A stretch of 64,000 bases of DNA from an uncultured Candidatus Saccharibacteria bacterium. GTDB lineage: Bacteria; Patescibacteriota; Minisyncoccia; Phycocordibacterales; UBA9973. Below the pieces are notes generated by a model. The model was not told where the DNA came from. It did not search any database and worked only from the letters and a program-made list of their open reading frames with translations. The stretch spans positions 15,951-79,950 of the forward strand of contig CAZNJI010000003.1 in NCBI GenBank assembly GCA_964573395.1, in the 5' to 3' direction. Shown in pieces: positions 2,669-47,396 of the stretch (positions are counted from its first letter, which is position 1; each line of letters begins with the position of its first letter). The translations under genes and the position numbers were made by a program.

Positions 2669-2776
2669 ATGGTTTATGGCTCTATTTTAGCATGGCACTA
2701 GCCCTATTGACAAAATGGCATTTTTTGGTAGTGTACTGTAAAACATTCATTTTCAAAACCCATAAAAAATTGTTTT

Positions 2777-3621: not shown

Positions 3622-4593
3622 TTACTTACTTTTCAAAATCCTTACAAGTTCGTCTCTGAATGCTTTTAGGTTTTCGTCATCAAAAAGTGTAATCGCAAAT
3701 ACCGGTTTTCCCAATTTTTGAAACTTCTTTATCTGAGTCGCCGCAACTTCTTCTGGAACCGTATCTGTTTTCGTAAGCAAAATCACCTCTTCCTTTTCCA
3801 AAAGTTTTTGATCGAACTTTCCGAGCTCTTCCCGCACTGTTTCGTATGCTTTCAACATGTTCTGGTTTTCAAAGGAAACCAGGTGTGCAAGTACTTCCGT
3901 TTTTCGGATATGTTTTAAAAATTTATGCCCCAATCCTTTTCCTTCGCTTGCGCCTTCAATAAGCCCCGGAATGTCGGCTAGAATAAACCCGTACATGTCG
4001 CCCAAGTTTGGATCAAGCGTAGTGAAGGGATAATCTCCCACTTTCGCAGTTGCATTGGTAAGCGCATTTAACAGGCTCGACTTGCCGGCGTTTGGAAACC
4101 CTATGAAGCCAACATCCGCAATGAGCGATACTTCAATGTGCAGCGTTGCCGTTTCGCCTGGCTTTCCAAGGGTTGCTTCTTCAGGAGACTGATTCGTTGA
4201 ACTTTTGAAATGTTCGTTTCCGTAACCGCCCGCGCCGCCGGAAACCACTTTTTCAACCTGCCCTTCTTTTAAAAGCTCAATTACTTTTCCGGTTTCCGTA
4301 TTAGTGACAGCAGAGCCGATGGGAAATTCAAGATAGAGATCCTCTCCGCTCTTTCCATGCAAACTTCGGCTGCCACCTGGTTCACCGTTTTCAGCAGCGT
4401 ATTCTTTTTTATGGCGATACTGGTCGAGCACGCGCAAGCTTCGGATGGCCCGAACGAATATGTCTCCGCCGCGGCCGCCGTTTCCTCCCGCAGGGCCGCC
4501 TTTTGCAATGAACTTCTCGCGCCGCCAGCGCACCACCCCGTCACCGCCGCTTCCTCCTTTTACCTCAATTGTAATTTCATCAAGAAATGCCAT
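3622..4593 (-). CDS. obg: GTPase Obg
   Basis: An N-terminal glycine-rich Obg fold (GGDGVVRWRREKFIAKGGPAGGNGGRGGD) plus GTPase motifs. Confidence 0.9.
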   Translation of the reverse strand: MAFLDEITIEVKGGSGGDGVVRWRREKFIAKGGPAGGNGGRGGDIFVRAIRSLRVLDQYRHKKEYAAENGEPGGSRSLHGKSGEDLYLEFPIGSAVTNTETGKVIELLKEGQVEKVVSGGAGGYGNEHFKSSTNQSPEEATLGKPGETATLHIEVSLIADVGFIGFPNAGKSSLLNALTNATAKVGDYPFTTLDPNLGDMYGFILADIPGLIEGASEGKGLGHKFLKHIRKTEVLAHLVSFENQNMLKAYETVREELGKFDQKLLEKEEVILLTKTDTVPEEVAATQIKKFQKLGKPVFAITLFDDENLKAFRDELVRILKSK

Positions 4594-4604: not shown

Positions 4605-5495
4605 TTACGTGGCAATTGCCTGTTCGGCAAGCCGAACGGCTCCTGCTTTCGTTTTCGCAACGGCAGTAAAACGACCATTGTGACAGAATACGGCATCAGG
4701 AATACCCGATGCTTCTTGGAGTGCTTCGTCGCGAAGCCCTGCCCAGCTTTCGGGAAATGGGAGCCGAAGCTTAAACTGGAGCGGGTCAATAGGAACTGCT
4801 TTTACCGTCCAGTTGCCATCTTCTCTTTGGTACACAACGAACAGAGGCTCTGGGTACTGCGTGAGCACATCTCTCCAGCCTGGATACTCCTGCGGCAATT
4901 CTATGATTCGCTTGGTTCCCGGCGCGTGATCGTATGCTTGCCGAATGAAGCTCGCCGATTCCGCGTAGCTCTTGGTATGCAGAATCATTCTCGTTAAAAC
5001 GGTAATGGCAATATTCACCGCATCAAGAAACGCCTCATCGTTCGTCCGCTCTTCATTCCATGCAGGCCGAAACAGCGCAAGCATCTCGCCGATGGTATAC
5101 GGGTACACCCCCTTGTCAGGAACGGATTGCACTACCCCGTTATCGTGGCCGTCTATTCCTTGTACTAACTTTTCATCTATCAACTGAGCATTTTCGATCG
5201 AGCCGGCAAGTATTTCGCCGTAATGCTTCCATACCAGCCCGAAAGAGGCATACGGAATGCCGTTTTCCCGCACCCCTGCCCCGCCTGGCTGGTGATGGTC
5301 GAACCGCAGCCGCTCTGGGTCGTATTCGCCGCCGACATCAACCAGAATGTCTGCAATCGAAAAATCCTGCTCGTTTCGGGAACGAACAATTTCTATTTCT
5401 TCATCCGGATGCGCCAGCGTTAGCGTGGCCGCAGCAAATACGTCATCAGCGTGGAACGTTCCGTCGTGGGTAACAATGATAAACCGCTCCTTCAT
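4605..5495 (-). CDS. MYG1/UPF0160-family metal-dependent hydrolase
   Basis: Begins MKERFIIVTHDGTFHADDV, the family signature. Start ATG is at 5493-5495; the upstream residues in the ORF track are probably not translated. Confidence 0.7.
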   Translation of the reverse strand: MKERFIIVTHDGTFHADDVFAAATLTLAHPDEEIEIVRSRNEQDFSIADILVDVGGEYDPERLRFDHHQPGGAGVRENGIPYASFGLVWKHYGEILAGSIENAQLIDEKLVQGIDGHDNGVVQSVPDKGVYPYTIGEMLALFRPAWNEERTNDEAFLDAVNIAITVLTRMILHTKSYAESASFIRQAYDHAPGTKRIIELPQEYPGWRDVLTQYPEPLFVVYQREDGNWTVKAVPIDPLQFKLRLPFPESWAGLRDEALQEASGIPDAVFCHNGRFTAVAKTKAGAVRLAEQAIAT

Positions 5496-5496
5496 G

Positions 5497-5838
5497 CTAA
5501 TCGGCGAATTTTCCGACGATCCAGTTGATAATCGAAATAATGAATGCGCCAATGATTGCCGCGGTAAAGCTTGCAACTTCAATGCCACTAATAATGGAAG
5601 CAACAAACCAGAAAAAGAGCCCGTTTAGGAGCACCGAAAAAAGGCCAAGCGTAATGATGTTGAGCGGCAAAGTCAGAATGCCGACAATCGGCTTCACGAC
5701 CAAATGAATGAACACCAAGCACGCCGCAACGATAACCGCGGTTAAAATGCTGTTCTCAGCAATCGTGATTCCCGAAACGATGTACGGCAGCGCGAAGACT
5801 GCAAGCGTTGTAACGAACCATCTGATTAAAATTCCCAT
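5497..5838 (-). CDS. YvlD/Phage_holin_4_2-family small membrane protein
   Basis: About 113 aa with 3-4 TM helices and an LPLNIITLGLF motif like B. subtilis YvlD. The track start at 5850 is TTG; the ATG is at 5838. Confidence 0.55.
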   Translation of the reverse strand: MGILIRWFVTTLAVFALPYIVSGITIAENSILTAVIVAACLVFIHLVVKPIVGILTLPLNIITLGLFSVLLNGLFFWFVASIISGIEVASFTAAIIGAFIISIINWIVGKFAD

Positions 5839-5842: not shown

Positions 5843-6298
5843 TTATGCAAATAAGCTTTCTACTATTTTTTTAACGACCGCACCGTCCGCCCGGCCAGCA
5901 ATTTCCTTCATAACCGCCCCAACCAGGATGCCTGCTTTTGATTTGTCTCCTAAGCCAAGTTCAGTTTGCTTTTTCACGGCAATTTCTCGGATGGATTCCT
6001 CATCCATCTGCGGCGGCAAAAATGTTTCAAGAATGACAACCTGCGCCTCCTCCTGCGCTGCAAGTTCTGCCCTGCCGCCTGCCTGGTACTGCTCGATGGC
6101 ATCCTTTCTTTGTTTAATGAGCCGCTTAATAACCGCTTGCAGCACGCCATCTTCAAGCGGGTCTTGCGGCGTTTTTCCCAAAGCTACTGCCTCGTTCGTT
6201 GCAGCCGAAAGAATGGCCCGAAGCGTGTCCATTTTCGTCTGGTCGCGCTCTTTCATGGCAGCCTGCAAGCTTTCTCGAACATCATTCTGGAGAGGCAT
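5843..6298 (-). CDS. yqeY: GatB/YqeY domain protein
   Basis: Conserved across the YqeY family (LQAAMKERD...RAILSA...KQRKDAIEQY...GRAELA...E..ILE.FLP). Confidence 0.75.
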   Translation of the reverse strand: MPLQNDVRESLQAAMKERDQTKMDTLRAILSAATNEAVALGKTPQDPLEDGVLQAVIKRLIKQRKDAIEQYQAGGRAELAAQEEAQVVILETFLPPQMDEESIREIAVKKQTELGLGDKSKAGILVGAVMKEIAGRADGAVVKKIVESLFA

Positions 6299-8988: not shown

Positions 8989-9010
8989 TGTGCTTGCTTG
9001 GTGAATTAAG

Positions 9011-9073
9011 GGCCTAAAACATTTTTTCCAAAAATGTTCGGCCGAACATTTGCCAAAGCAAATGTTTTAGGCC
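9011..9073 (+). promoter_or_regulatory. Nested palindromic leader overlapping the 5' end of tRNA-Glu
   Basis: The outer arms GGCCTAAAACATTT (9011-9024) and AAATGTTTTAGGCC (9060-9073) are perfect reverse complements. They enclose a perfect 20-bp palindrome AAATGTTCGGCCGAACATTT (9032-9051). The 3' arm overlaps the first nucleotides of the tRNA (GGCC). Confidence 0.5.
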
Positions 9074-9141
9074 CTATCGTCTAACGGTTAGGACATCGGC
9101 TTCTCAAGCCGGTAATCGGGGTTCGATTCCCCGTAGGGTCA
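9070..9141 (+). tRNA. tRNA-Glu (anticodon CUC)
   Basis: Cloverleaf: acceptor GGCCCTA/TAGGGTC, anticodon stem TCGGC/GCCGG, loop TTCTCAA, T-arm CGGGG-TTCGATT-CCCCG. No encoded CCA. Confidence 0.85.
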
Positions 9142-9253
9142 CACGATTTTTATTCTTATTTTAACAATGTAATTTTTTGGTACCAAATGGGAGTTTGGAA
9201 CCAAAATAAAAAAGCCATCCTTTCGGATAAGCTTTAAGTAAAATTCTTTTAAT

Positions 9254-9583
9254 TTATTTACTCTTCATGAGCTGCGGAACCCTTTCGGCCAGTTCTTTTC
9301 CAGTAAATCCAAGCTCCTGCGCAAGCTTTAATGTATTTACCAGCATCTTTACGGTTGCTTCTTCCACCTGGCTTTTATTCATATAGGTGTACTTGCCCGT
9401 ATGATCATAGCTTTCACATACTTCCGCAATTTTACCGATAGACTTTTGCATATGAAGAACGCTGTGATTTAAAGCAAACATCGCTTTTTGCTCCGGTGGC
9501 ATATCTTTCATTACCGGGTAATTTTCCTCATTAAAAATGTACTTAGAGCCAATAAACTCTATAAATTGCTGTACTGTTTCCAT
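9254..9583 (-). CDS. Hypothetical 109-aa protein, possibly a MazG-like all-alpha NTP-PPase fold
   Basis: ATG start, own promoter and terminator, low GC. Weak resemblance to small MazG/YpjD-type proteins (ALNHSVLHMQKSIGKIAE...EEATVKML), but the catalytic acidic residues are not all conserved. Confidence 0.4.
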   Translation of the reverse strand: METVQQFIEFIGSKYIFNEENYPVMKDMPPEQKAMFALNHSVLHMQKSIGKIAEVCESYDHTGKYTYMNKSQVEEATVKMLVNTLKLAQELGFTGKELAERVPQLMKSK

Positions 9584-9635
9584 GTTTTTTGATTTTACCT
9601 ACACTACCATTTCCTTAATATTCGTCAATATTCGA

Positions 9636-9662
9636 TTCCAATTCCGACCACATTCGGTCACA
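9636..9662 (+). repeat. Islet junction motif copy a (TTCCAATTCCGACCACATTCGGTCACA)
   Basis: One of four related copies. It lies just upstream of the -35 element (CGTCAA at 9623-9628 on plus, i.e. TTGACG on the coding strand) of the gene at 9254-9583. Followed by GAAATTGGAAACAAAAAAGCC. Confidence 0.6.
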
Positions 9663-9685
9663 CACTGTAGTGGAAATTGGAAACA

Positions 9686-9720
9686 AAAAAGCCGTTCCTT
9701 TCGGTTCGGCTTTGTTTCAA
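9686..9720 (-). terminator. Probable intrinsic terminator of the gene at 9734-10279
   Basis: An imperfect hairpin (GCCGAACCGAAAGGAACGGC) followed by TTTTTTGTTTCC on the minus strand. Confidence 0.35.
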
Positions 9721-9733
9721 TGAAAACTTTTGA

Positions 9734-10279
9734 TCAATTCTTGCTGATTGTGACTTTTTCTTCTTTCATCAGAAAATGGTCAGGGGCAAACTCTGTTACG
9801 ATACCCACAATAACTGAAAGCGGTACATACATTCCCTGGACGATACAGTCGATTCCTTTCAGAGGCATTTTGAATTGCTCTTGCATAGATTCGTGCATTT
9901 CAGTTACCAGGTCAGACAGCTCAGGGTCATCTGTTTTTCCACTTTCGGAAACACTGTTAAGGATATCCACCGCTTCAGTGAAATGCTGGTAGAAACCCTC
10001 ATAATACATATTAGCCAGCTTCAGTCCTTCCGCACTGATATCTATCAGCGGAACCCATGTTGTGTACATTTCCCGTACTTCAGGGAACTTGTTCTTGTTG
10101 GATTCAGTAACAAACAGGCTTTTCATTGCTGTGTGCCAGTTGTTACGGAAGATTTGATGCCCAACCTTCATCATGTCCTTTGCGGCTGACATTTTTCCGA
10201 GAAAATCTTTTTTCTTTGAAGCTTTAACGAAATTGGTTTTTGCTTCTTCGAACAGTGAGAAATATTCAATCGGTTTCAT
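9734..10279 (-). CDS. Hypothetical 181-aa protein (islet module)
   Basis: ATG start. A perfect TTGACA-N17-TATTAT promoter lies upstream on the coding strand (about 10333-10361), and a structured 5' UTR contains the inverted repeats TTTAGTGGTT/AACCACTAAA. No recognisable domain. Confidence 0.45.
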   Translation of the reverse strand: MKPIEYFSLFEEAKTNFVKASKKKDFLGKMSAAKDMMKVGHQIFRNNWHTAMKSLFVTESNKNKFPEVREMYTTWVPLIDISAEGLKLANMYYEGFYQHFTEAVDILNSVSESGKTDDPELSDLVTEMHESMQEQFKMPLKGIDCIVQGMYVPLSVIVGIVTEFAPDHFLMKEEKVTISKN

Positions 10280-10434
10280 ATTTTGTTGATTTTAGTGGTT
10301 ACCAGAAATCCTATATCTGGACCTTTGGAAACCACTAAAACTCTCTCAAGGAACTCTATGGCTATATAATAGCATAATTATACATAAATGTCAATATATT
10401 ACTTTCCTATACAAACCAATACTTTTAAATAAAT

Positions 10435-10462
10435 GGTTCCAATTCTGACCACATTGGGTCAC
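10435..10462 (+). repeat. Islet junction motif copy b (GGTTCCAATTCTGACCACATTGGGTCAC)
   Basis: A near-identical copy of the junction motif. It ends in GGGTCAC, like the tRNA-Glu 3' end. Confidence 0.6.
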
Positions 10463-10534
10463 CTAAAGCAAAACTCTTGCTCTCGTTTACTACTAAACTC
10501 GTGGCTACCCTTTGGGTAGCCATAAATGGAGATT

Positions 10535-10565
10535 TAAATAAAAAGATCCCCTTTATTCGGGGATC
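10535..10565 (-). terminator. Intrinsic terminator of the gene at 10576-11355
   Basis: The hairpin GATCCCCGAATAAAGGGGATC is followed by a T-run on the minus strand. Confidence 0.55.
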
Positions 10566-10575
10566 GGATTAAATC

Positions 10576-11355
10576 TTATGCCTTTTCCAATTCCTTCTCT
10601 TTTCTGAAAGCAGTAACCGCAATGTCCTTGATTGAAAGAGTTGAATTGTTGCTTTGAAGCACAGTGTTTACCCATACGGTAAGGTCGTTAAAAAGCTTTG
10701 ATGCCTTGAATGCTTCGACAGAGATACTCTGTTCTTCGGTAAGAACTTCGTGGGCAACCAGCATGTCGCCTTTCTCGCAGACAAACACTACACCCAACCG
10801 TTCGTTCATCGAAGTGGCTGATCTTTCCAGAGGAACAATAGGAAGCGAATCCTTGATTCCATGAAGAATGACTTTCGTGTTACCCTTGTTTTCTTCAACG
10901 AGGAGCGTGATATCCGGTATGTGATTTTCCAAAAGAAACTCTACCCGAAACAGTACGTCTGCATAAAAATTCTTTTTGAATTCCATCGCTTTTTGTACCC
11001 CTTCAAGGTAGCCAGTCATCTTTTTGAAATTGTCCACCCCGTTGCTTATGTGGGCAACATCAACCTGGTTTGCTTCACGTTCCCTGATGTTTTCTTTCTT
11101 TTGGTCGAAACCAATAACACGATCGTATTCTTTGTTCGGGAAAATGTAATGGAAGCCGAAATAGTGTATCTTCATCTCTCTTCCACAACCACATTCACAC
11201 GAAAAACTAATATATGCATTCCATTTTTCGTTATCTTTGGTTGAGCGGAATAGGTCGTAGAAACTTTTGAGACGTATTTCTTCACTAATGTTGCCACAGT
11301 GCTCTACCCAATCAGGGAGGCTTTCTAAAAGGTTTATGTTTGTTTTTCTATTCAT
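10576..11355 (-). CDS. Hypothetical 259-aa protein with an N-terminal Cys/His cluster (islet module)
   Basis: ATG start. Carries WVEHCGN...SFSCECGCGREM...HYFGFHY. Upstream on the coding strand is a TTGCCA-N16-TAGTGT promoter. No recognisable domain. Confidence 0.45.
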   Translation of the reverse strand: MNRKTNINLLESLPDWVEHCGNISEEIRLKSFYDLFRSTKDNEKWNAYISFSCECGCGREMKIHYFGFHYIFPNKEYDRVIGFDQKKENIREREANQVDVAHISNGVDNFKKMTGYLEGVQKAMEFKKNFYADVLFRVEFLLENHIPDITLLVEENKGNTKVILHGIKDSLPIVPLERSATSMNERLGVVFVCEKGDMLVAHEVLTEEQSISVEAFKASKLFNDLTVWVNTVLQSNNSTLSIKDIAVTAFRKEKELEKA

Positions 11356-11457
11356 AAAGAACTAGTTTAGTGATTGATTATTTTGCTTACACTACCATTT
11401 ATCCTGAATTTGGCAATAGTCCTCTCATTTCATGTATACTGCTTTTCAACGCTAGTT

Positions 11458-11496
11458 GGTACCCCACTATTTCGGAAATCCAAGTCTTGGGGTCAC
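11458..11496 (+). repeat. Degenerate junction motif copy d (GGTACCCCACTATTTCGGAAATCCAAGTCTTGGGGTCACAG)
   Basis: Shares the GGT(T/A)CC start and the GGGGTCACA end with copies a-c; the middle has diverged. Confidence 0.35.
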
Positions 11497-11504
11497 AGAT
11501 TCTG

Positions 11505-11540
11505 GAAAAGAAAAAAGACCCGAAATATTCAGGTCTTTGG
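11505..11540 (-). terminator. Intrinsic terminator of the gene at 11554-12144
   Basis: The hairpin GACCTGAATATTTCGGGTC is followed by TTTTTTCTTTT on the minus strand. Confidence 0.55.
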
Positions 11541-11553
11541 ATAATTTTTTGTA

Positions 11554-12144
11554 CTAAGAAACATTTTGTAAAATGCGCAAACCATTTGTCCACGGAACAC
11601 CAATTTGGCAATCAATACCCCAGCGATTTCCGTATTGGCTACCCAGCCACCCTATGATAACAGGATAAATAGTAGTATCAGTTTTTTCTTCGTTAATCTT
11701 TACTTCAACTGAAACATATCCAACTAAAGTAGTGTTTGCATTTGTCAGTACGCCTTTTTCTCCTGACATTTGTTTCTTAGTCAATTGTAAAATTCTTTCA
11801 GCAATCTGGGTTGGGTCGGTAGTAGAGATGTTTAGATCAGACATAAGTTGCTTATCATACTTTGAGTGATTGTAGTGTCCTACTGATGAAATATATTCAC
11901 CTTTTGATCTCTCAGCCTGGTGAGTATAAAAGGTAGTTCCACACTGTAACTCTTTTTGTTTAAGAGTTTCAGCAGCTATCTCTTTGTCGGATATAAGCGG
12001 AAGAACATATTTAGTAAAGTTTTCTCCTTGCCAGTATTGTCTAAGAGCTTCCTTTCGCTTCTTGCGCTTTATACTTTTAACGGTGCAGATACCAATGTCT
12101 TGGTAGTGATTTTGCGGATTGTAGGTAGTGGAAGTACTTTTCAT
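11554..12144 (-). CDS. Hypothetical 196-aa protein (islet module)
   Basis: ATG start with its own promoter and terminator. No recognisable domain. Confidence 0.45.
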   Translation of the reverse strand: MKSTSTTYNPQNHYQDIGICTVKSIKRKKRKEALRQYWQGENFTKYVLPLISDKEIAAETLKQKELQCGTTFYTHQAERSKGEYISSVGHYNHSKYDKQLMSDLNISTTDPTQIAERILQLTKKQMSGEKGVLTNANTTLVGYVSVEVKINEEKTDTTIYPVIIGWLGSQYGNRWGIDCQIGVPWTNGLRILQNVS

Positions 12145-12193
12145 TTTTTAAATTTTCCTTACAATACCATCTCTCTGAGATCCGTCAATATCT

Positions 12194-12221
12194 GGTTCCA
12201 ATTCTGACCACATTCCCTCAC
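12194..12221 (+). repeat. Islet junction motif copy c (GGTTCCAATTCTGACCACATTCCCTCAC)
   Basis: Third near-identical copy. It lies directly upstream of the TTGACG-N16-TATTGT promoter (coding strand) of the gene at 11554-12144. Confidence 0.6.
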
Positions 12222-12261
12222 AATTTGAAAATTCTTCGTAGAGAGTATTTAGTTCCCCTCT

Positions 12262-12299
12262 TTTGTAATTAAAACCCACCCCTATATAGGGGGTGGGTT
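12262..12299 (-). terminator. Probable terminator of the phosphagen kinase gene
   Basis: The hairpin AACCCACCCCTATATAGGGGTGGGTT is followed by TTAATTAC on the minus strand. Confidence 0.45.
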
Positions 12300-12307
12300 A
12301 ATTTCGC

Positions 12308-13330
12308 TTAATTATTCAATGATTTCTCGAGCTCTATGAGTTTTTTTACTCCATGATAAAGCTGTTCGTAAATCTCACGTTCGGTTACCCCAAGGCGGCG
12401 CTTATTCGAAATGTCGTAGATGCCATCGGAAGATTCCGAGTGCTCTCCGTGTACGCCTCGGATCGATAGCCCAAGCGTTCCGCATATTGCTTTGAAGTTT
12501 TCACTCGCCGAAAGTTTTGGAATCTTAATGTGTACCGAAGCACGCATTGCTGTTCCTAAATTGGTTGGACAAGTGGTGTGGTATCCGCGGATATCATCAA
12601 AAGCAAAGTGAATTTTTTCATTGATGAAATCGAGTGCAGTTGCCAACCGCATGAATACTTCAGCAATGTCGGCACCCTGCTGCATGCTAATAATACGCAT
12701 ACTGTCTTCTTCTGAAATCCATACCAGGAACCTCTTATCATCTGAAAAGAAAATTCCGCGATTCTTCGGCCAGTCGCGGTTTACGCCAACACTTTCTAAA
12801 AAACGGTCTCCCTGCTTGAATAAGAAATGGTCTGCAACCAGTTTTTGCCGCATTTCTTCGCTCATGCCGTCAAGCGGAAAATATTCTCCCTTGAGCGATC
12901 CAGGAAGCTGCTGTAGTGCTGCAATAATTTCAGACTCCATAGCTGCCCGATCTGCCGCTGATATGGCAGAAGGAAACGCATATTTTGCAAAATTACGCCC
13001 AACCCGGATACGGGTTGATACAACATAACTCCCTTCTGGATCCAAGTTTTCAATAGAAAGACCAATGAGCGAAAAATCGCTTCTGTGGCCGGCCATGTCG
13101 TAGTGGTGATAATCCTTAATCACCGGGTCAAAAAGAGGAGCAAGCATAGTATACGATTCAGGATCGCCTGCATAGACACCAATACTTGAGTCTGGATTAT
13201 CAATGCCAGACTGAATGGCTTTTTGTAGTGTCCAGCCATGCGGAGTCGTTACATCGGCCAATTGTGTCTGTACTGCTTCACTGCAGTACTTTTTCATTAA
13301 CATGTCGGGGTTTGATTTAATTTCTGTCAT
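12308..13330 (-). CDS. Phosphagen (arginine/creatine-type) kinase, ATP:guanido phosphotransferase
   Basis: Active-site signature CPTNLGT (PROSITE pattern C-P-x-[ST]-N-[ILV]-G-T), ISNKRRLGVTE, and a eukaryote-like N-terminal domain (YAGDPESYTMLAPLFDPVIKDYHHY). 340 aa, full-length fold. Confidence 0.85.
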   Translation of the reverse strand: MTEIKSNPDMLMKKYCSEAVQTQLADVTTPHGWTLQKAIQSGIDNPDSSIGVYAGDPESYTMLAPLFDPVIKDYHHYDMAGHRSDFSLIGLSIENLDPEGSYVVSTRIRVGRNFAKYAFPSAISAADRAAMESEIIAALQQLPGSLKGEYFPLDGMSEEMRQKLVADHFLFKQGDRFLESVGVNRDWPKNRGIFFSDDKRFLVWISEEDSMRIISMQQGADIAEVFMRLATALDFINEKIHFAFDDIRGYHTTCPTNLGTAMRASVHIKIPKLSASENFKAICGTLGLSIRGVHGEHSESSDGIYDISNKRRLGVTEREIYEQLYHGVKKLIELEKSLNN

Positions 13331-13391
13331 AAGAACGATAGTTTACTGTAAATTTTGAAATAATACTATCCTATAAGGGTTTTTTGTCAAT

Positions 13392-13601
13392 TTATAAAGA
13401 TTGAATTGACAAATCAAAAAGCTTCGCTGTTTTAGGCGAAGCTTTGCTCACTTCCTGGTGCTGCATTGCCTTATCCCGCTGTTTTTTCAGAACGACAAAG
13501 ACGGCAATACAGATGAAGAGAATAATGATCATTGGCAGAAAGAATGTGTACTTTGGATTCTTGGTGTGATTAAAATCGTACCAAGCTTTTTTCATATCCA
13601 T
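13392..13601 (-). CDS. Possible small single-TM membrane protein
   Basis: 69 aa with an ATG start and one clear TM helix (FFLPMIIILFICIAVFVVL). Its 3' end overlaps a terminator-like hairpin at 13416-13445, so coding status is uncertain. Confidence 0.3.
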   Translation of the reverse strand: MDMKKAWYDFNHTKNPKYTFFLPMIIILFICIAVFVVLKKQRDKAMQHQEVSKASPKTAKLFDLSIQSL

Positions 13602-13683: not shown

Positions 13684-15324
13684 TTATATTTTGAGCAACT
13701 CTCGCACTTTCTTAAACCCGAGTGCCACAATAAATGTTGAGAGCCGCGGACCGGTGTCTTTTGAAATAAGCAGGTTGTACAAATCTTTAAAGAAAGCGCG
13801 CTGGCGAACTGCGTTCTCTTTCTGATCGAGCGATTCATCTTTGGCAATATCGTATATAAACTGCTCAAGATTTTCTTCAATCAATTCGTTCTTTTCGATT
13901 GCAGTAAGAAGCGTAGCTACATACCCCTTTCCTTCTTCAGTCATTTTTTCGTAATATGCAGTATTTGGCTCAGTGCGAATAGAAATTTTTTCTTCTGTAT
14001 TGTATATGTCGAGCCAATTCTTCGCTTTTGGAATGCGATTCTTCAGTGCCTGGCTATCTACAGCCGCACCTGCGCTCTCAAAGAGCATCAGCATCTTCGA
14101 TGCATCCCATTGCATAATCTGTCCAAAGGCCACTGTCTGGCGGAACGACGTTGGTTGACCATAGTGCTTCTCGCTTTCTGAGAGCGACCAGGCAAGAGAG
14201 TCCGCCGCGATTGCATCCAATTCCCCATTCTCTAATTTTTTCACCCCCAGATCGTACTCTTCATACTGGCGATAAATTTCACTGTCAAATGCCAGGTTAA
14301 ACGGCTGTGCCGGCGTCTTGCGAAGATAGAGCCACTTTAAAAGCCGGGCTTCGTAAATCTGCAGCAAGTCCTCCGGCGAGACAGCGCCGCCTTTCGAGCC
14401 GGACATTTTGCCGTCCATTCCCACAATGCCGACGAATTTATACTCGACAAATACCGGCGGCTCGCTCGAAAAAATTTCTTTCGCGATGATGCTTGAAACA
14501 TCGAAGCTTGATCCTGGAGAAGCGTGGTCGTGCCCGCCCGGTTCGAACACCACTTCTTCATGCATCCAGCGCATTGGCCAATCTACTTTCCACGGAAGCT
14601 TGTAGCAAAAATCCGTTTTTAAATCGATCGTTTCTTCCTGCTTTGTTTCTTTGCAGTAATAGGTTACCTTCGATTCGCCGTTAAACGATCTGATTTCAGT
14701 GAAATCTTTGCCAGTAAAACGCGAATAAATTGCGATTGGGAAATAACTCTCAACAAAAGATTCCTTCGTGAGGCATTTTTCTTTGATCGCTTTTTCGCTC
14801 ATAAGCGAAAACATAACTTCGCCGATCTCTTTGCGCTTTTGCATCGCCAGAATTACCTTCTCAGCATAGGCGCCGCTCTCGTAGAGCTCGGTTTGGTTTT
14901 TATACTCAAGTTCAATGCCAAGCTTTCGCATTGATTCTTCGAATGGTTTTTGAAAACTTTCGGCATAGGATGCGTACTTGCCCGTCGGATCGGGAATCTT
15001 TGAAATCGGCATGCCGATGTATTGGCTAAACGATTCCGGCACCCCAGCCGGCACTTTTCGAAAGCGGTCGAAATTATCCCAGGAAAAAACAAATCGGGTT
15101 TGCTTGCCCTTTTCTTTGAGCGCCTGCAACACGGCGAAAGAGGTCATGACGTCACGGAAATTCCCGAAGTGCACCACTCCCGACGGGCTAATGCCTGCTG
15201 CGGCAGTGTACACATCCTTGTCTGGAAATGCCTTCAGTACCTCATCCGCAATGGTGCGCGCCCAGTGCTGGTTACCTGTTTCCAAGCTGCGTGGGTTGAT
15301 TCGCTTTGATTGATCGAATGCCAT
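13684..15324 (-). CDS. lysK: Lysyl-tRNA synthetase, class I (archaeal type)
   Basis: GISPSGVVHFGNFRD (class I HIGH region), WDNFDRFRKVP, IGMPISKIPDP, KMSGSKGG and GPRLSTFI match class I LysRS (Pyrococcus-type) motif for motif. Confidence 0.85.
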   Translation of the reverse strand: MAFDQSKRINPRSLETGNQHWARTIADEVLKAFPDKDVYTAAAGISPSGVVHFGNFRDVMTSFAVLQALKEKGKQTRFVFSWDNFDRFRKVPAGVPESFSQYIGMPISKIPDPTGKYASYAESFQKPFEESMRKLGIELEYKNQTELYESGAYAEKVILAMQKRKEIGEVMFSLMSEKAIKEKCLTKESFVESYFPIAIYSRFTGKDFTEIRSFNGESKVTYYCKETKQEETIDLKTDFCYKLPWKVDWPMRWMHEEVVFEPGGHDHASPGSSFDVSSIIAKEIFSSEPPVFVEYKFVGIVGMDGKMSGSKGGAVSPEDLLQIYEARLLKWLYLRKTPAQPFNLAFDSEIYRQYEEYDLGVKKLENGELDAIAADSLAWSLSESEKHYGQPTSFRQTVAFGQIMQWDASKMLMLFESAGAAVDSQALKNRIPKAKNWLDIYNTEEKISIRTEPNTAYYEKMTEEGKGYVATLLTAIEKNELIEENLEQFIYDIAKDESLDQKENAVRQRAFFKDLYNLLISKDTGPRLSTFIVALGFKKVRELLKI

Positions 15325-32920: not shown

Positions 32921-33946
32921 TTATGCCGGGCTATATTTGCCCTCATCGCTCTTTTTGAAATATTTTGCGTTCTGCAGATTGACGATGATGGTGTTCCGCT
33001 TTAAGAAGCGCTCTTTCAGCACGCGATCAATGATTTCTTCTTTCGTCAGCGGCCCCTCTTTTTCCAGGATTTCGCGAATGACGTCTCGCACCACGCCTGG
33101 CTTGTATCCCCATTCAGCGAGCGCGTAGTAGCCGCGGCCGACCAGAACGAAACGAGGATCTTTAATGAGTTCGTTGTGGCAGGTTGCAACGTGCGTCTTT
33201 TTGTTGAACGTATCGCTGATCGCTTTTGCAACTTCTCGGAAGTGCATCGGAGAGCCGTGCTTTTTCATGATAAGGTACGCGTAGTCTTTGATGCCGCGCG
33301 TCTTTACGTTCTGCGAGTCGGCAGGGCCCCATTCGCCGAGCGGATTCTTTGCGATGCGCTTTGAAATGGAAAGCCAGCGTCGGGCGATTTCTTCGTTTTT
33401 ATACTGCTCGGAAACGTTGGAAAGTTCCTCTATGAATCGGCTAATCAGGTCGTTTTCCGCCAAAAGTTCTCGGTCTGATATGTTCTGATAAATAGCATGC
33501 AGCGCTTCGTGGATCATTTCAGAAATTTCTTCGTCAATCGTCCAGCGGGATTTGAAATGAGGGTCTTCCTTCAGTTTTTTGAATTCATCGCCGAGCACCA
33601 AGTAGAAATGAATGTGGTTCTGCACTGACTTGTCTTTTGAAAGCGCGGTTAAAAGCTCCTCTTCGTGCACCATCACGCCGAGCGAATCAATGACGCTTTT
33701 GAGTTCTTGGAACGTTTTGTGTTCGCTCTTAAACGCCTCGCTTTTTCGAATAGCGTTCAAAGCCGCGTTTTCAATCTGCCGTACGCGTTCTCGAGTGATG
33801 CCGTATTTCTTCCCAATCGCCTCAAGCGTTTTCGGTTCTCCATCGCCAAGACCATACCGGTTGACGATAATGTCGTGCGCACGATCTTGCAGCTCTGAAA
33901 GCAGACGCTTGGTGACTTGTTTCGGTTTGAAATTGACTGAAGGCAT
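32921..33946 (-). CDS. Sigma-70 region-4-like HTH fused to a C-terminal HARE-HTH domain protein
   Basis: LEAIGKKYGITRERVRQIENAALNAIRK matches sigma-70 region 4.2. The C-terminal HFREVAKAIS...DPRFVLVGRGYYALAEWGY resembles the HARE-HTH of the RNAP delta subunit. ATG at 33946. Confidence 0.5.
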   Translation of the reverse strand: MPSVNFKPKQVTKRLLSELQDRAHDIIVNRYGLGDGEPKTLEAIGKKYGITRERVRQIENAALNAIRKSEAFKSEHKTFQELKSVIDSLGVMVHEEELLTALSKDKSVQNHIHFYLVLGDEFKKLKEDPHFKSRWTIDEEISEMIHEALHAIYQNISDRELLAENDLISRFIEELSNVSEQYKNEEIARRWLSISKRIAKNPLGEWGPADSQNVKTRGIKDYAYLIMKKHGSPMHFREVAKAISDTFNKKTHVATCHNELIKDPRFVLVGRGYYALAEWGYKPGVVRDVIREILEKEGPLTKEEIIDRVLKERFLKRNTIIVNLQNAKYFKKSDEGKYSPA

Positions 33947-34010
33947 GTGTGTTTTGGTTAATTTGTATAAGTTGATAGTATCATGCTTGCAAGAAAAGTC
34001 AACATATCCC

Positions 34011-35078
34011 CTAGCCAATCCGCTTGATGTCTTGGATAGTAAGCGCGATCATGAGTGCAATCAGGAGCATGAATCCGATGATGTGGATGATGCCGACAAC
34101 TTCCTGGCTAAATTTCCTTCGGGTAACCGCTTCAAGGCCAAGAATAAGGAGCCGGCCGCCATCGAGCGCCGGAAACGGAATCAGGTTCAACACGGCCAAG
34201 TTAAGCGATATGAGCGCTACGAATGAGAGGAAGTAGCTGATGCCGACGCTTGCCGCCTCTGAAACCGCCCCGGCAAGCCCCACCGGACCGATGAACGCCT
34301 CAAGCCCGCCCTTTCCCTGCACCAGCGTTGCAATCAAGTTTCCAAAAGCAACAACAACGCTTTTCGTAATGAGCACGGATTCCTTCAACCCAACCCACAT
34401 CGCCTTGAACGGAGAGAGTGTTATGACCGCTATCGGTTCAGCCGCAATGCCAATGGAACGAGTGCCGTTTTCCGAATCTATGGCCGGAATGATGGGAATG
34501 AGTTCCAGTTTTCCTTCCCGTTCTACGGTCAGCTGAATTTTGCTTTGCGTTTCGGAATTTTGCAGCAGCGAACGGATATCTTCGGTGTGCGGATTTTCTA
34601 TCACCGTACCGGCAGAGCGAATTTCAATGATGCGATCGTGCAACCGGATTCCCGCATCTTCAGCCGGAGATTTCGGCAGAACGCTGATAACTTCCGGCGT
34701 GCCTTCAGGTACTACTTGCGGCACGCCGATCATGAATGCGGCTGAAAGCAGGATCCAGCCGAGCAGAAAATTGCAAACCACGCCCGCCACCAGCACCAGC
34801 GCCTGTTGGTACCGAGGGCGATTTAAAAAGAGCCGCTCAGGAGCAACGTCGGTTCGCGGTTCGATGGTGTTTTCTCCCGCAATCTTCACGAACCCGCCGA
34901 TCGGCAGCGCGTTCAATGAAAAGGTGGTTTCCTTTCCCTTCCAGCTCGCAACCTTCGGCGGAATGCCGAAACCGAATTCATCAACCTTCATGCCGGAGCG
35001 CCGCGCGGCAAAGTAATGCCCCCATTCATGAACGAGCACCGTGATTAAAAGCACTGCAATAAAAATAATGGCCGTCAT
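34011..35078 (-). CDS. rseP: Site-2 protease RseP (M50 zinc metalloprotease)
   Basis: HEWGHYFAAR (HExxH) in a TM helix, a PDZ region and C-terminal TM helices. Confidence 0.8.
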   Translation of the reverse strand: MTAIIFIAVLLITVLVHEWGHYFAARRSGMKVDEFGFGIPPKVASWKGKETTFSLNALPIGGFVKIAGENTIEPRTDVAPERLFLNRPRYQQALVLVAGVVCNFLLGWILLSAAFMIGVPQVVPEGTPEVISVLPKSPAEDAGIRLHDRIIEIRSAGTVIENPHTEDIRSLLQNSETQSKIQLTVEREGKLELIPIIPAIDSENGTRSIGIAAEPIAVITLSPFKAMWVGLKESVLITKSVVVAFGNLIATLVQGKGGLEAFIGPVGLAGAVSEAASVGISYFLSFVALISLNLAVLNLIPFPALDGGRLLILGLEAVTRRKFSQEVVGIIHIIGFMLLIALMIALTIQDIKRIG

Positions 35079-43587: not shown

Positions 43588-43677
43588 GGAGGAATGCCAG
43601 AGTGGTTGAATGGGCCGCTCTCGAAAAGCGGTAGAGCCGAAAGGTTCTCGAGAGTTCGAATCTCTCTTCCTCCGCCA
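43588..43677 (+). tRNA. tRNA-Ser (anticodon CGA)
   Basis: Acceptor GGAGGAA, anticodon loop CTCGAAA, a long variable arm, T-arm GAGAG-TTCGAAT-CTCTC. CCA is encoded. Confidence 0.85.
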
Positions 43678-43730: not shown

Positions 43731-44117
43731 TTAGTTTTTTCCTTGTTTACGGTACGTTTGTTTAATTTCCGAGTAAAGCTTTTTGGTAGTAGCTTTCCTA
43801 GCGTTTTCCTTAGAAAACAATTCGACTGGGTATTTTTCTTTTACTTTTTTCAATTTTTCTTCAAGAATCTTTTGGAGATCCAAATCGAGTATGACACCCA
43901 TATCTAAACAGTAGATAAGAATATCTGCCAACTCTTTCTTTATTTTTTCTAATTGCTCTGCATCAACTTTTTTCTTATTGCGAGTATTGTCCCACTGGAA
44001 GATCTCAAGAAGCTCTGCACTTTCAATAACGAGAGATTTTGCTATATCCGCAGGGTGAAGATTGTCCCAACCTCTTTCTTCAAGATATTCTTTTACTTTT
44101 TTCTTAAGGCTATTCAT
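43731..44117 (-). CDS. MazG-like nucleoside triphosphate pyrophosphohydrolase (small all-alpha NTP-PPase)
   Basis: 128 aa. SLVIESAELLEIFQW...KKELADILIYCLDMG matches MazG/YpjD-type EExxE...E..D motifs. ATG at 44117. Confidence 0.65.
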   Translation of the reverse strand: MNSLKKKVKEYLEERGWDNLHPADIAKSLVIESAELLEIFQWDNTRNKKKVDAEQLEKIKKELADILIYCLDMGVILDLDLQKILEEKLKKVKEKYPVELFSKENARKATTKKLYSEIKQTYRKQGKN

Positions 44118-44130
44118 TACTTTTATTATA

Positions 44131-44177
44131 ATAAAAAATCCCGTCCCGTGGTTAGTACCACAGGACGGGTTTTGTTG
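44131..44177. terminator. Bidirectional intrinsic terminator
   Basis: The hairpin CCCGTCCCGTGG-TTAGTA-CCACAGGACGGG has A/T runs on both sides. Confidence 0.55.
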
Positions 44178-44179
44178 CA

Positions 44180-44947
44180 TCATTTCAGCAACTGCAATGC
44201 CTTGACGAGATACGTCTCGGCCATACCCCAGTCGATCTGGTCGAGAGCACTTCCGCTCGGCCGAAGCTTGCCTTGAGCATCAATCGAGATGTCGGGAAAC
44301 TCCCGATACAGAGGCTCGACGAGCCCGATGCTTTCAGGTCCGAGTCCGCCAGCCGCGACGATCCCGAGATTGGGAAACGCTTCCTTGATCGCTCGAGCGA
44401 ACGGAATGAGTCCCACAGCATCCATGCCGAGTCCTCGCCCCATGCTCTTGTCGAGAAGGACGTGCTGAGCGACACCTTCGTAACCCCGAAGCCGTTCGAC
44501 GACTTCTTGCGGATCGTTGTTGGCTTGCTCAATTGCATTCTTGCCGACTTGGAGAATGACCTCCAGCTGCTTGCGCGAGGCGTGAACCACACCGGCGACG
44601 TGTCCTGGATCTGGCCAGACCATGTCGAGTTGCAGAGCGTTGATACCGATGCCTCCGAACTTGATCGCGCGACCGAGACTTTGGAAAACATCGATCGCAT
44701 CGTAGTCCGCATAGTGCAGGCAGTTCATCGTCTCGTCCGAGCCGAAGATGTCAGCGATCGTCTCCTTGGAAGGGAACGCTTTCGTCCATTTGGTCTCAAG
44801 ACCATGAAGCGTCTTGTAGCTCATCATCACGCCGACATGAAGCCGACGGTTCTGTTCTGCTCCAAGGTTCGTCTTGAACACCGCGAGCATACGTTGGACC
44901 TGCTCAAAAGTCATGAAGTCGGTGATGCCGACGTATGGGATGTACAT
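44180..44947 (-). CDS. TrpF-like (phosphoribosylanthranilate-isomerase fold, TIM barrel) protein, GC-rich and probably horizontally acquired
   Basis: Weak PRAI-like motifs (YVGITDF, LQLDMVW, VLLDKSMGRGLGMD, IVAAGGLGPESIG). About 57% GC with strongly GC3-biased codons, against ~45-48% in its neighbours. Confidence 0.45.
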   Translation of the reverse strand: MYIPYVGITDFMTFEQVQRMLAVFKTNLGAEQNRRLHVGVMMSYKTLHGLETKWTKAFPSKETIADIFGSDETMNCLHYADYDAIDVFQSLGRAIKFGGIGINALQLDMVWPDPGHVAGVVHASRKQLEVILQVGKNAIEQANNDPQEVVERLRGYEGVAQHVLLDKSMGRGLGMDAVGLIPFARAIKEAFPNLGIVAAGGLGPESIGLVEPLYREFPDISIDAQGKLRPSGSALDQIDWGMAETYLVKALQLLK

Positions 44948-46682: not shown

Positions 46683-46685
46683 TCT

Positions 46686-46707
46686 GTGAGCGATACAGGA
46701 ATCGGCT
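46686..46707 (-). repeat. Direct repeat of the tRNA-Val 3' end (partial pseudo-tRNA, att-like scar)
   Basis: TCTGTGAGCGATACAGGAATCG (plus strand) is identical to 46812-46833, which covers the T-stem, acceptor 3' strand and ACA of tRNA-Val. Confidence 0.55.
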
Positions 46708-46975: not shown

Positions 46976-47047
46976 GGCCCTATCGTCTAACGGTTAGGAC
47001 GCCGGCTTTTCAAGCCGTTAATCGGGGTTCGATTCCCCGTAGGGTCA
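46976..47047 (+). tRNA. tRNA-Glu (anticodon UUC)
   Basis: Same backbone as the tRNA-Glu at 9070 (identical acceptor, D- and T-arms). Anticodon loop TTTTCAA. A TTGATT-N17-TACAAT promoter lies at 46941-46969. Confidence 0.85.
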
Positions 47048-47111
47048 CACAGCCAGAATTGGAAACAAAAAGCGACTGAATGAATTTCTTCAAACAGTCA
47101 CATTAGCTTAC

Positions 47112-47396
47112 TTAAGAATAATAAATTTTTGTTCCAGGGAATTTTTTTTCGAAGAACAAACAAAGAGAGACATATATTCCGCTCCAACTTGCGGTTTCAA
47201 GTTTTTTAAGCGAGAAGCCCTTTCCGTTGGGTAGGTACTTATAGTTAGAAAAGACAATGTAGTCAGCATATGTGATATCTTCAAGGTCTGAACTAATTCG
47301 TTTTAATATCTCTTCAGACGGCATATCGTCTCCCTCAAAAATAAGCTCTCTAATCTCGAAGTTTTCCGTGTCGACAAGTCGTGCATTATAAGCCAT
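47112..47396 (-). CDS. Hypothetical 94-aa protein
   Basis: ATG start. A TTGCCA-N16-TAAGGT promoter sits upstream on the coding strand (47420-47455). No domain. Confidence 0.35.
   Translation of the reverse strand: MAYNARLVDTENFEIRELIFEGDDMPSEEILKRISSDLEDITYADYIVFSNYKYLPNGKGFSLKKLETASWSGIYVSLCLFFEKKFPGTKIYYS

Follow-up and report, generated by a model that had tools for sequence, protein, structure and literature searches.

Why should a run of short, unrelated genes, each equipped with a promoter and a terminator, lie in tandem against the 3' end of tRNA-Glu and share a nearly identical 28-bp box at their junctions? We addressed this question in a 64-kb stretch of DNA (the window) from a genome of the Patescibacteria (candidate phyla radiation, CPR). 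A sequence-only reading had offered two answers, serial insertion at the tRNA 3' end or a shared activator site. Our findings favour the first over the second, but with four corrections: one of the five genes is backbone, the box does not appear to be a partial tRNA copy, the conserved block is larger than the box, and a further module exists elsewhere.

The tRNA-Glu(CTC) said to adjoin the array is present at 9070-9142 (+; ARAGORN, Rfam), and its 3' end, GGGTCACA (9135-9142, +), forms the proximal array boundary. The five minus-strand ORFs (109, 181, 259, 196 and 340 aa) are also present, yet they do not form one tRNA-anchored array. The 340-aa product (12308..13330, -; Pfam, synteny) is, as had been recognized, a eukaryote-type phosphagen kinase, carrying both Pfam domains of the arginine/phosphagen kinases, and among solved structures its best relatives are arginine kinases rather than McsB. 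Its assignment to the island cargo fails, since in relatives the kinase belongs to a conserved backbone (dnaK-dnaJ-LysRS-small ORF-kinase-...-tRNA-Glu(CTC)-DUF3298-RmuC-ExoX-YqeY-DHH-Obg-GatB) and flanks the slot; thus, the slot holds four modules, not five. In this order, too, the 3' end of tRNA-Glu(CTC) points toward the kinase, and the tRNA keeps the same syntenic place in L031, L033 and L025. From grpE to GatB the window is collinear with L031-L035, the sole difference being the interval from the kinase to the tRNA-Glu(CTC) 3' end. Here this interval holds four low-GC, mutually unrelated ORFans; in L031 it holds one 269-aa gene, and in L034 CBASS, an S24 peptidase, a methyltransferase and a terminase-like gene. 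In the closest relative by DnaK (87%) the whole region is absent. The interval differs from lineage to lineage; that it is an insertion slot is a proposal that belongs to an overall explanation we hold tentatively, at slightly less than an even chance.

A sigma-70-like promoter and a terminator made of a hairpin and T-run were found for each gene, as anticipated. Module 1 comprises a 109-aa ORFan (9254..9583, -; GC 0.39), its promoter (9601..9628, -; TTGACG-N16-(TG)GTAGTGT) and a terminator hairpin (9203..9235, -) that is 73% identical over 33 nt to that of the 181-aa gene (9681..9713, -). The latter gene, also an ORFan (9734..10279, -; GC 0.41), makes up module 2 and is read from a working promoter at 10366..10394 (-; TTGACA-N17-TATTAT with TG, 11/12), 40 nt from the box. 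Module 3 carries a 259-aa gene (10576..11355, -) with a promoter at 11389..11416 (-; TTGCCA-N16-(TG)GTAGTGT) and a terminator at 10545..10565 (-), and module 4 a 196-aa gene (11554..12144, -; GC 0.37) with a promoter at 12161..12188 (-; TTGACG-N16-TATTGT with TG) and a terminator at 11514..11538 (-). The promoter type is not confined to the array: TTGACR-N16-TGGTAGTGTA recurs outside it at 2707-2735 (+) and 47422-47449 (-).

The low GC noted for the region stands, with 0.37-0.41 in the module genes versus 0.47-0.53 in the backbone. The cassette proteins are unrelated to one another, lack paralogues in the window, cluster with no other protein at 90% identity, and have very few homologues or none. 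For instance, the 259-aa protein belongs to a rare family with 14 other members among 1.84 billion representatives, and its confident structure model matched no known fold; for the 196-aa protein, 5.8 billion proteins contained just three homologues, at 42-47% identity, none of them adjoining a tRNA. A MazG fold, suggested for the 109-aa protein, found no support in searches that included Pfam. Overall, by composition, mutual unrelatedness and scarcity of homologues, the cargo looks foreign.

The three near-identical junction copies were readily recovered. The box, GGTTCCAATTCTGACCACATTSSSTCAC, occurs with 0-2 mismatches at 9634-9661, 10435-10462 and 12194-12221 (+), and none of 100 shuffled sequences gave a match. 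With the following base, these are copy a (GATTCCAATTCCGACCACATTCGGTCAC(A), 9634..9662, ending in GGTCACA at 9656-9662), copy b (GGTTCCAATTCTGACCACATTGGGTCAC(C), 10435..10463) and copy c (GGTTCCAATTCTGACCACATTCCCTCAC(A), 12194..12222), all on the plus strand by motif search and HMM; copy c forms the distal array boundary, adjoining the kinase terminator, and has CCC in place of GGG before TCAC. Any two copies agree at 25/29 positions. No other copy was found in the 64 kb, also by HMM, and a wider search for the motif had no more success, the 19-nt box core being matched no better than by chance in species-representative genomes, JGI metagenomes and viral contigs. A fourth, degenerate copy had been placed at 11458, but this junction (d, 11456..11497, +) is missed by an HMM built from copies a, b and c and resembles the others only in its terminal TTGGGGTCACA (11487-11497, the last ~10 nt) and the following GATTCTGGAAAAGAAAAAAG flank.

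Could such a box bind an activator (or repressor) that co-regulates a small gene set? Immediately upstream of the -35 element the box has two half-sites, GAATGTGG and GAATTGGA, separated by one turn of the helix, and copies a and c take the classic activator position, their ends 5 nt upstream of -35 and their span roughly -41 to -68. Box conservation is also somewhat above that of neighbouring spacers: between a and c the box changes at a 3-nt SSS triplet and one other position, compared with 10/16 matches in their -35/-10 spacers. To this extent the position proposed earlier fits. However, copy b is a perfect box kept beside a decayed promoter homologue, with the working promoter ~40 nt further on, and the 259-aa gene retains its promoter without a box, as does the kinase gene, whose promoter is of the same type. 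Box and promoter are therefore separable, and the box is probably not an obligatory activator site. Co-regulation also lacks a further box in the 64 kb and a candidate regulator, and gives no reason for the GGGTCACA ending or for the inverted partners found after tRNA ends (below). We consider it quite unlikely; the box resembles a site of cassette insertion more than one of regulation.

Conservation extends well past the box. Copies a and c share a block of box, promoter and 5' leader (78% identity over 78 nt) that runs from the start codon and stops precisely at ...TCACA; there is further similarity among three -10/leader regions and between two terminators. This is what would be expected if the junctions were composite terminator-promoter repeats of the PeSL type, each a regulatory unit of terminator, box, promoter and leader, whose repetition lets ordinary homologous recombination exchange, add or remove ORFans with no dedicated recombinase, the tRNA-end likeness being incidental or left by one founding event. 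As in PeSLs, ORFans with a sigma-70-like promoter and stem-loop each occupy a variable region between conserved genes (PMC2839356, PMC4122927). Similarly, a homologue of the 196-aa gene on another CPR contig (L039) lies between its own, different junction repeats (26 nt, 96%; 84 nt, 85%). Yet 78 nt at 78% is a poor substrate for homologous recombination, the setting is a cellular chromosome rather than a T4-type phage, and three observations would go unexplained: the last 7-8 nt of tRNA-Glu at every boundary, the inverted half-boxes right after a tRNA-Glu end and copy a, and a cassette at both tRNA-Glu genes. On balance we regard this alternative as unlikely. The inclusion of promoter and leader in the conserved block nonetheless counts against the site-specific insertion that we favour, as homologous exchange accounts for it equally well and a site-specific mechanism needs no such block.

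How, then, do the junctions relate to the tRNA? All cassette boundaries terminate in the closing bases of tRNA-Glu, (G)GGTCAC(A), and it is exactly there that homology between cassettes stops. On the plus strand of the 64 kb, GGTCACA occurs four times, at the two tRNA-Glu ends and at junctions a and d; the terminal bases are GGGTCACC in copy b and CCCTCACA in copy c. The likeness of the motif to the tRNA-Glu 3' end claimed earlier is exact over these last 7-8 nt, GGGTCACA. Beyond them it is no more than suggestive: when all 127,932 windows of 34 nt are ranked by likeness to the tRNA-Glu 3' end, copy a comes 6th and copy b ~18th among distinct loci, but in gapped local alignment against tRNA-Glu alone copies b and c are not significant. 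In its strict form, the earlier insertion reading makes the boxes plain att scars of classical integrase-bearing islands: tandem islets would have lost their integrases by later deletion, and each box between them would be a degraded duplicate of part of the tRNA-Glu 3' end. The position at a tRNA 3' end, the direct orientation and the terminal GGGTCAC agree with this, as do TTCGATTCC and GGTCACACA, held by copy a and both found in tRNA-Glu. However, the three copies are far closer to one another (25/29) than to the tRNA and have in common the bases that are extra in comparison with it, and therefore descend from a common non-tRNA sequence. Moreover, genuine scars do occur in this lineage, both nearby and in a relative, and these duplicate 19-22 nt of the tRNA exactly or nearly so: an exact 22-nt repeat lies 132 bp from tRNA-Val, and L025 has a 17/19 repeat beside tRNA-Glu(CTC), with 3' and 5' partial duplicates. 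The modules, in turn, are single genes of 0.5-1.1 kb without integrase remnants. Scars of this kind are thus a very improbable source of the array; set against the 22-nt scar at tRNA-Val, the box appears not to be a plain tRNA-copy scar. Judging from the duplicates at tRNA-Val and at tRNA-Glu(CTC) of L025, tRNA 3' ends are probable recombination hot spots in the lineage.

The second tRNA-Glu gene, tRNA-Glu(TTC) (46976..47048, +; ARAGORN), has the same 3' end, GGGTCACA. Directly 3' of it lies a 94-aa ORFan gene (47112..47396, -) of the same build, a further module, with its promoter at 47422-47449 (-) and a possible degenerate box ending in CTCACA at about 47462-47489. The resemblance reported between the flank of copy a and the sequence leaving this tRNA holds: AATTGGAAACAAAAA matches at 15/15, GGTCACAC is common to both, and none of 500 shuffles reached the score. 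These flanks carry inverted partial boxes. One, CAGAATTGGAAACA (47051..47066; alignment, HMM), starts 2 nt past the tRNA-Glu(TTC) 3' end and matches the reverse complement of copies b and c at 13/14 (0/500 shuffles). The other, TGTAGTGGAAATTGGAAACAAA (9666..9687; repeat, alignment, HMM), is homologous to the tRNA-Glu(TTC) downstream flank and pairs with copy a over 22 nt (77% complementary, 13 nt between arms) in a hairpin with z of -1.9. In an HMM scan of 128 kb of searched sequence, two of the four next matches after the three full copies were these inverted partial copies, that at 9666..9687 with the joint best score outside a, b and c, and both begin 2-4 nt past GGTCACA. Junctions c and d did not fold when tested, so the inverted pair is formed by junction a only. 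An inverted motif-like segment, AAATGGGAGTTTGGAACC (9185..9203), read from the sequence next to the 109-aa gene, immediately ahead of its terminator, is weak and without statistical support of its own.

Taken together, these features suggest that each cassette carries, in its box, one end of a recombination junction, and that a recombinase encoded outside the window inserted the cassettes serially at the 3' end of tRNA-Glu; this remains a tentative explanation, to which we give a little under an even chance. Slot variability, synteny, cassette anatomy and boundaries are shown by the sequences; recombination itself, its direction and its enzyme are what we infer. On the plus strand a cassette runs from an inverted half-box through an A-run and terminator hairpin, the minus-strand gene and its promoter to the 28-bp box, with the terminal bases of tRNA-Glu, (G)GGTCAC(A), at either side. 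The outer 7-8 nt of the box would act as a shared crossover core, and the remainder, GGTTCCAATTCTGACCACATT, as an arm loosely mimicking the T-loop region of the tRNA, with its inverted partner across the core. Cassettes would be added one after another beside the tRNA-Glu 3' end, each insertion leaving a fresh GGGTCACA at tRNA-Glu and displacing older cassettes toward the kinase, and the same process may have placed the single cassette at tRNA-Glu(TTC). The enzyme would act in trans. As had been stated, no integrase was found: Pfam gave no integrase, recombinase or transposase domain in 46 ORFs of the window, six of the scanned ORFs beyond the slot having no match. Nine other ORFs of at least 150 aa, none overlapping a scanned gene, lay outside that scan; they include 1253-2668 (GatB), 3622-4593 (Obg), 4605-5606 (DHH), dnaJ and dnaK, identified by synteny or NCBIfam, as well as 61698-63788, left out of all scans. 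Nor was there any sign of movement, the array being 100% identical in contigs of three sequencing runs. These negatives count against the explanation, as do the lack of the 19-nt box core elsewhere beyond chance, the weak likeness of box and tRNA past the last 7-8 nt, the inverted pair limited to junction a, the CCC of copy c and the position of the 196-aa gene's homologues away from tRNAs.

Several known systems share parts of this organization. In integrons, and in clusters of attC sites without integrase, cassettes are bounded by a short common core, GTTRRRY, and inserted at attI. The present array likewise stacks single-gene units of one orientation, each with a recombination-site-like element, at one fixed chromosomal site, with GGTCACA as the core; yet no intI adjoins it, each cassette brings its own promoter and terminator, foldable imperfect palindromes are not a consistent feature of the junctions, and insertion would be at a tRNA end, not attI. 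In the Xer-dependent dif modules of Acinetobacter plasmids, small gene modules lie between inverted copies of a 28 bp site and the recombinase is encoded elsewhere. Site length, small modules bounded by inverted copies and a recombinase encoded elsewhere are paralleled in our proposal, but an 11-6-11 palindrome is not evident (CTGACC/GGTCAC arms match at 5/6 in copy b and 3/6 in copy c), the box does not resemble dif consensus sequences, and no Xer genes were seen in the window. The PeSL cassettes of T4-type phage hyperplastic regions combine an intergenic sigma-70-like promoter with a terminator stem-loop (PMC2839356, PMC4122927). There, as here, repeats lie upstream of ORFans in a variable stretch flanked by conserved genes, with conserved junctions and unrelated cargo; unlike those of phage, the junctions of this cellular CPR chromosome are tied to a tRNA 3' end and carry a GC-balanced 28-bp box upstream of -35, where PeSLs have an AT-rich stretch. 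Finally, the tycheposon islands of Prochlorococcus arise by tandem integration at tRNAs; tycheposons encode a tyrosine recombinase and replication genes and have partial tRNA copies on their flanks, their attachment sites being about 40 nt long (bioRxiv 10.1101/2020.12.28.424599). In contrast, the units here are single genes of 0.5-1.1 kb without a recombinase, and the junction repeat is exact to the tRNA over 7-8 nt only. Yet both show accumulation next to a tRNA, within a variable island of a small, streamlined genome, cargo mostly of unknown function and junctions marked by repeats, and in both newcomers would displace older material outward.

Three junctions between the low-GC minus-strand genes downstream of tRNA-Glu(CTC) carry copies of a 28-bp box, as the sequence-only reading had it: GGTTCCAATTCTGACCACATTSSSTCAC occurs on the forward strand at 9634, 10435 and 12194 (copies a, b and c) with at most two mismatches, shuffled sequences yield none, and the copies are pairwise identical at 25/29 positions. 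A profile HMM built from the three copies recovered no fourth full copy in the window, and the degenerate copy proposed at 11458 fell away, since junction d (about 11458-11497) shares with the others just the terminal TTGGGGTCACA and the flank after it. Between copies a and c the likeness runs well past the box: 78% of 78 nt agree, in a block that opens at the base preceding the start codon and stops exactly at ...TCACA; within this stretch the boxes differ at the SSS triplet and one other position, and the -35/-10 spacers agree at 10/16 positions. Three -10/leader regions and two terminators are alike as well. On the forward strand every module boundary closes with (G)GGTCAC(A), at the end of tRNA-Glu(CTC) (9135-9142; gene at 9070-9142, +, ARAGORN), copy a (9655-9662), copy b (10456-10463), junction d (11490-11497) and copy c (12215-12222, as CCCTCACA). 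The heptamer GGTCACA itself is found four times on that strand of the window, namely at both tRNA-Glu ends and at junctions a and d. Directly after the core of copy a lies an inverted partial box, GTGGAAATTGGAAAC, and directly after tRNA-Glu(TTC) (46976-47048, +, ARAGORN) lies another, CAGAATTGGAAAC; once the full copies are set aside, both rank among the four best HMM matches, and the two flanks align with each other at 15/15 positions and with copies b and c, reverse-complemented, at 13/14. Immediately 3' of tRNA-Glu(TTC) comes a 94-aa ORFan that has the same promoter type and a possible degenerate box whose end is CTCACA.

We tentatively read the box as a cassette boundary, a reading that, judged from sequence, we rate just short of an even call. 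Single-gene expression cassettes would have been inserted serially beside the 3' end of tRNA-Glu, the 28-bp box representing the cassette-borne arm and core of the junction and the inverted half-box its opposite arm; the cassette-cassette junction (junction a) would then resemble a complete site, and the tRNA end with its flank a chromosomal site. Of the two explanations originally offered, serial insertion at a tRNA end fits the data best, although its simplest form, plain att scars, is less likely. The strongest competing account has composite terminator-promoter units exchanged through homologous recombination, as for the PeSLs of T4-type phages (PMC2839356, PMC4122927); it explains the extended homology but leaves the tRNA-linked boundaries unexplained. 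Junction b contains about 60 extra nucleotides (10467-10522) with two hairpins, one a 9-bp GC-rich stem (GTGGCTACC-CTT-TGGGTAGCCAT), that reach z -4.7 in single-stranded DNA folding and may be remnants of terminators from a lost cassette. A perfect 16-nt inverted repeat, AGGGCCTAAAACATTT / AAATGTTTTAGGCCCT, occupies 9009-9024 and 9060-9075, its second arm covering the first 6 nt of tRNA-Glu(CTC).

The surroundings of the array are conserved. The best named relatives of the adjacent class I LysRS come from Paceibacterota, Zambryskibacteria and Gracilibacteria, which places the genome in the Patescibacteria. From the contexts of LysRS and kinase homologues, tblastn and tRNA scans, we recovered a common order of L13, S9, grpE, dnaK, dnaJ, LysRS, a small ORF and the phosphagen kinase, then a variable interval, then tRNA-Glu(CTC) with its 3' end toward the kinase, (Gmad2), DUF3298, RmuC, ExoX, YqeY, DHH, Obg and GatB. 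One of the compared contigs, L031, is collinear with the window across this entire stretch, and the phosphagen kinase therefore belongs to the backbone and not to the cargo. Thus, five minus-strand ORFs (109, 181, 259, 196 and 340 aa) do follow tRNA-Glu(CTC), but the picture of a five-module array requires correction: the 340-aa kinase is a conserved syntenic gene of the clade. It is 87-90% identical to its counterparts, as against 78% for DnaK from the same contigs. The interval between kinase and tRNA holds four ORFans in the window, a single 269-aa gene in L031 and, in a further contig (L034, 12900-21000), a CBASS pair (CD-NTase and Cap15), an S24 peptidase, an N6/N4 methyltransferase and a terminase-like gene, a defence or prophage island in the very place that the array takes in the window. 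Junction repeats were found in neither L034 nor L030 among the relatives' slots, and in L025 the tRNA duplicates described below were the only ones. In L024, the closest relative by DnaK (87%), lysK stands immediately beside cysS.

The eukaryote-type phosphagen kinase (12308-13330, -) is widespread in Patescibacteria at 70-90% identity and, compared between the same genomes, better conserved than DnaK (88% against 78%), its nearest relatives outside the group being myxobacterial (66-67%); a literature search returned nothing tying phosphagen kinases to Patescibacteria, and a second, on tRNA islands in Patescibacteria, nothing relevant. Between dnaJ and the kinase the window encodes a class I LysRS (lysK, 13684-15324), and at that position the relatives L031 (251-1717), L032 (8047-9513) and L034 (8063-9529), which share this gene order, encode a class II enzyme (NCBIfam lysine-tRNA ligase, 3.7e-144); these unrelated enzymes appear to have been swapped in place.

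The four cargo genes are indeed low in GC (0.37-0.41, against 0.47-0.53 in their neighbours). Their products show no relationship to each other in all-against-all BLAST, which disposes of paralogy, or to the proteins of relatives' loci; none has a Pfam or NCBIfam match, and all are singletons at 90% identity. A defence role was likewise set aside, PADLOC returning one marginal, sub-significant match (109-aa protein), as was a phage origin, none of the four having relatives in IMG/VR. Among 1.84 billion representatives, 14 relatives of the 259-aa protein turned up, and its structure prediction, proposed as a check, gave a confident model (pLDDT 88.5) that matches no solved fold; for the 196-aa protein the same check failed, the model being unusable (pLDDT 37). 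The latter has three homologues at 42-47% identity. One of them, in another CPR contig (L039), has junction repeats of its own that differ from those here, with no tRNA nearby: repeats at 609-692, 1719-1744 and 2795-2887 bracket the homologue and a 94-aa neighbour (84 nt at 85% and 26 nt at 96%), have no Rfam or tRNA match, and include a 26-nt copy that, by its sequence, looks like an internally deleted one.

How closely the box resembles the tRNA bears on whether its copies are plain att scars, the partial tRNA ends left by successive integrations. In a comparison of all 127,932 34-nt windows with the final 28 nt of tRNA-Glu, copy a ranked 6th by score, or 4th once tRNA genes are left aside; copy b came about 18th when distinct loci are counted, and copy c lower. 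Under a stricter local alignment to tRNA-Glu copies b and c were not significant, and exact identity between box and tRNA covers the last 7-8 nt only. The three boxes descend from a common ancestral sequence other than the tRNA, sharing with it the terminal core and, weakly, the T-loop region, which makes plain scars the less likely account. A true scar in the same window is quite different: the 3' end of tRNA-Val(GAC) (46683-46704) is duplicated exactly over 22 nt at 46815-46836, 132 bp downstream, enclosing a 110-nt insert, and has the sequence of a textbook att-type scar. In contig L025, tRNA-Glu(CTC) has both a 3'-end duplicate (17/19; 5603-5621 / 5754-5772, 151 bp away) and a 5'-end duplicate (19/20; 5811-5830 / 5886-5905), and the slot encodes a collagen-like GXY-repeat protein; the small inserts at tRNA-Val and at this tRNA-Glu share no homology. 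A low-GC (0.34) MazG-like gene (43731-44183), which converges on the 3' end of tRNA-Ser(CGA) (43588-43677), is another foreign-looking gene abutting a tRNA end.

The genes each have, as proposed, their own sigma-70-like promoter and their own terminator, a hairpin followed by a T-run. The promoter type (TTGACR or TTGCCA, 16 nt, TGGTAGTGTA) is a house type, since it also occurs at 2707 (+) and 47422 (-). The alternative original explanation, that the box is an activator binding site common to these genes, finds agreement at copies a and c, where 5 nt lie between the end of the box and the -35 element downstream of it. Elsewhere box and promoter are separable: copy b keeps a perfect box next to a decayed promoter homologue, the good promoter (11/12, with TG) being some 40 nt beyond; the 259-aa gene shows the reverse, an intact promoter with a decayed box; and the kinase promoter never had a box. 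The distance from the -35 element is therefore not fixed, and the box is neither needed nor maintained by the promoters, which renders an activator site less likely than a cassette boundary. A regulon would be expected to have additional sites across the genome and a cognate regulator; within the 64 kb there is no further box site, and no candidate regulator emerged. As a CtsR or CIRCE heat-shock operator the box is a poor match by eye to the consensus sequences, and it is absent upstream of dnaK, grpE and hsp20, the dnaK operon being a neighbour of the array. An RNA gene or riboswitch was also discarded, Rfam giving no matches in the junctions at a permissive threshold. Separately, the long 5' leader of the 181-aa gene contains a strong hairpin (10290-10340, minus-strand RNA; 22-nt arms, MFE -24.9 kcal/mol, z -3.3) that may be a regulatory structure, and a 365-aa protein (32921-34018) unusually pairs sigma-70 region 4 with a HARE-HTH domain.

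Searches for movement and its machinery came back negative. The array is 100% identical in contigs from three sequencing runs. Neither the module proteins nor the 46 window ORFs that were run against Pfam have a tyrosine or serine recombinase domain; nine further ORFs of at least 150 aa, overlapping no scanned gene, lie outside that set. The 19-nt core of the motif occurs nowhere beyond chance in genomes, metagenomes or viral contigs, with 10 scattered single exact matches in 185,579 species-representative genomes (the source genome not included), 12 in JGI metagenomes and one in viral contigs, all of them in coding or GC-rich contexts and consistent with chance. Only L015 has several core copies at one locus; it belongs to a eukaryotic subtelomere of CCCTAA-type repeats and has no bearing on the array.

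The genomes of CPR/Patescibacteria are very small, and little is understood of the way in which they acquire and try out new genes; to our knowledge, few mobile elements have been described for them. A fixed tRNA-Glu slot that stacks ready-to-express orphan genes behind a common boundary would offer a concrete, testable mechanism of gene sampling. More boldly, the locus might represent a new cassette platform in CPR, with the tRNA-Glu 3' end serving as an integron-attI-like site at which box-bearing ORFan cassettes with their own promoters and terminators are captured and stacked by a recombinase from elsewhere or from a mobile element; we consider this unlikely, yet if true it would give tiny CPR genomes a dedicated site for sampling new genes. 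If the box turns out to be no more than a relic or a regulator site, the locus amounts to a small variable region of the ordinary kind. Both tRNA-anchored islets and junction-repeat cassettes are kinds already known, and the evidence here comes from one genome.

Among known systems, tycheposon-like islands resemble the slot in their position at the 3' side of a tRNA and in content that differs among related genomes (here the window, L031 and L034). They differ in that their flanking direct repeats are partial tRNA copies of tens of nucleotides, as against 7-8 nt of exact identity here, and in carrying an integrase, in the element or as a remnant, of which the scanned window ORFs have none. A Xer/dif site comprises 28 bp, in which a 6-bp centre separates inverted arms of 11 bp each; for CTGACC-ACATTG-GGTCAC in the box, the palindrome holds at 5/6 positions in copy b, at 4/6 in copy a and at 3/6 in copy c, and 11-bp arms are not visible. 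Integrons keep an intI integrase and attI beside an array of mostly promoterless cassettes in one orientation, each closed by an imperfect palindrome able to fold when single-stranded. The array shares the single orientation, but its cassettes have their own promoter and terminator, and its neighbours are tRNA-Glu, DUF3298, RmuC and the kinase, with no intI/attI; attC-like folding was rejected, as junction a alone folds to an inverted pair (z -1.9; c, z +1.2; d, z -0.2). In PeSLs, recombination between units gives rise to indels or mini-circles. These units reside in T4-type phage genomes, whereas the array lies amid Patescibacteria housekeeping genes, with no phage relatives found. As defined in PMC2839356, PeSLs are repeated intergenic units that precede ORFans in a variable region and join a stem-loop to a sigma-70-like promoter; the junctions of the window, likewise upstream of ORFans in a variable slot, have this composition of promoter and stem-loop.
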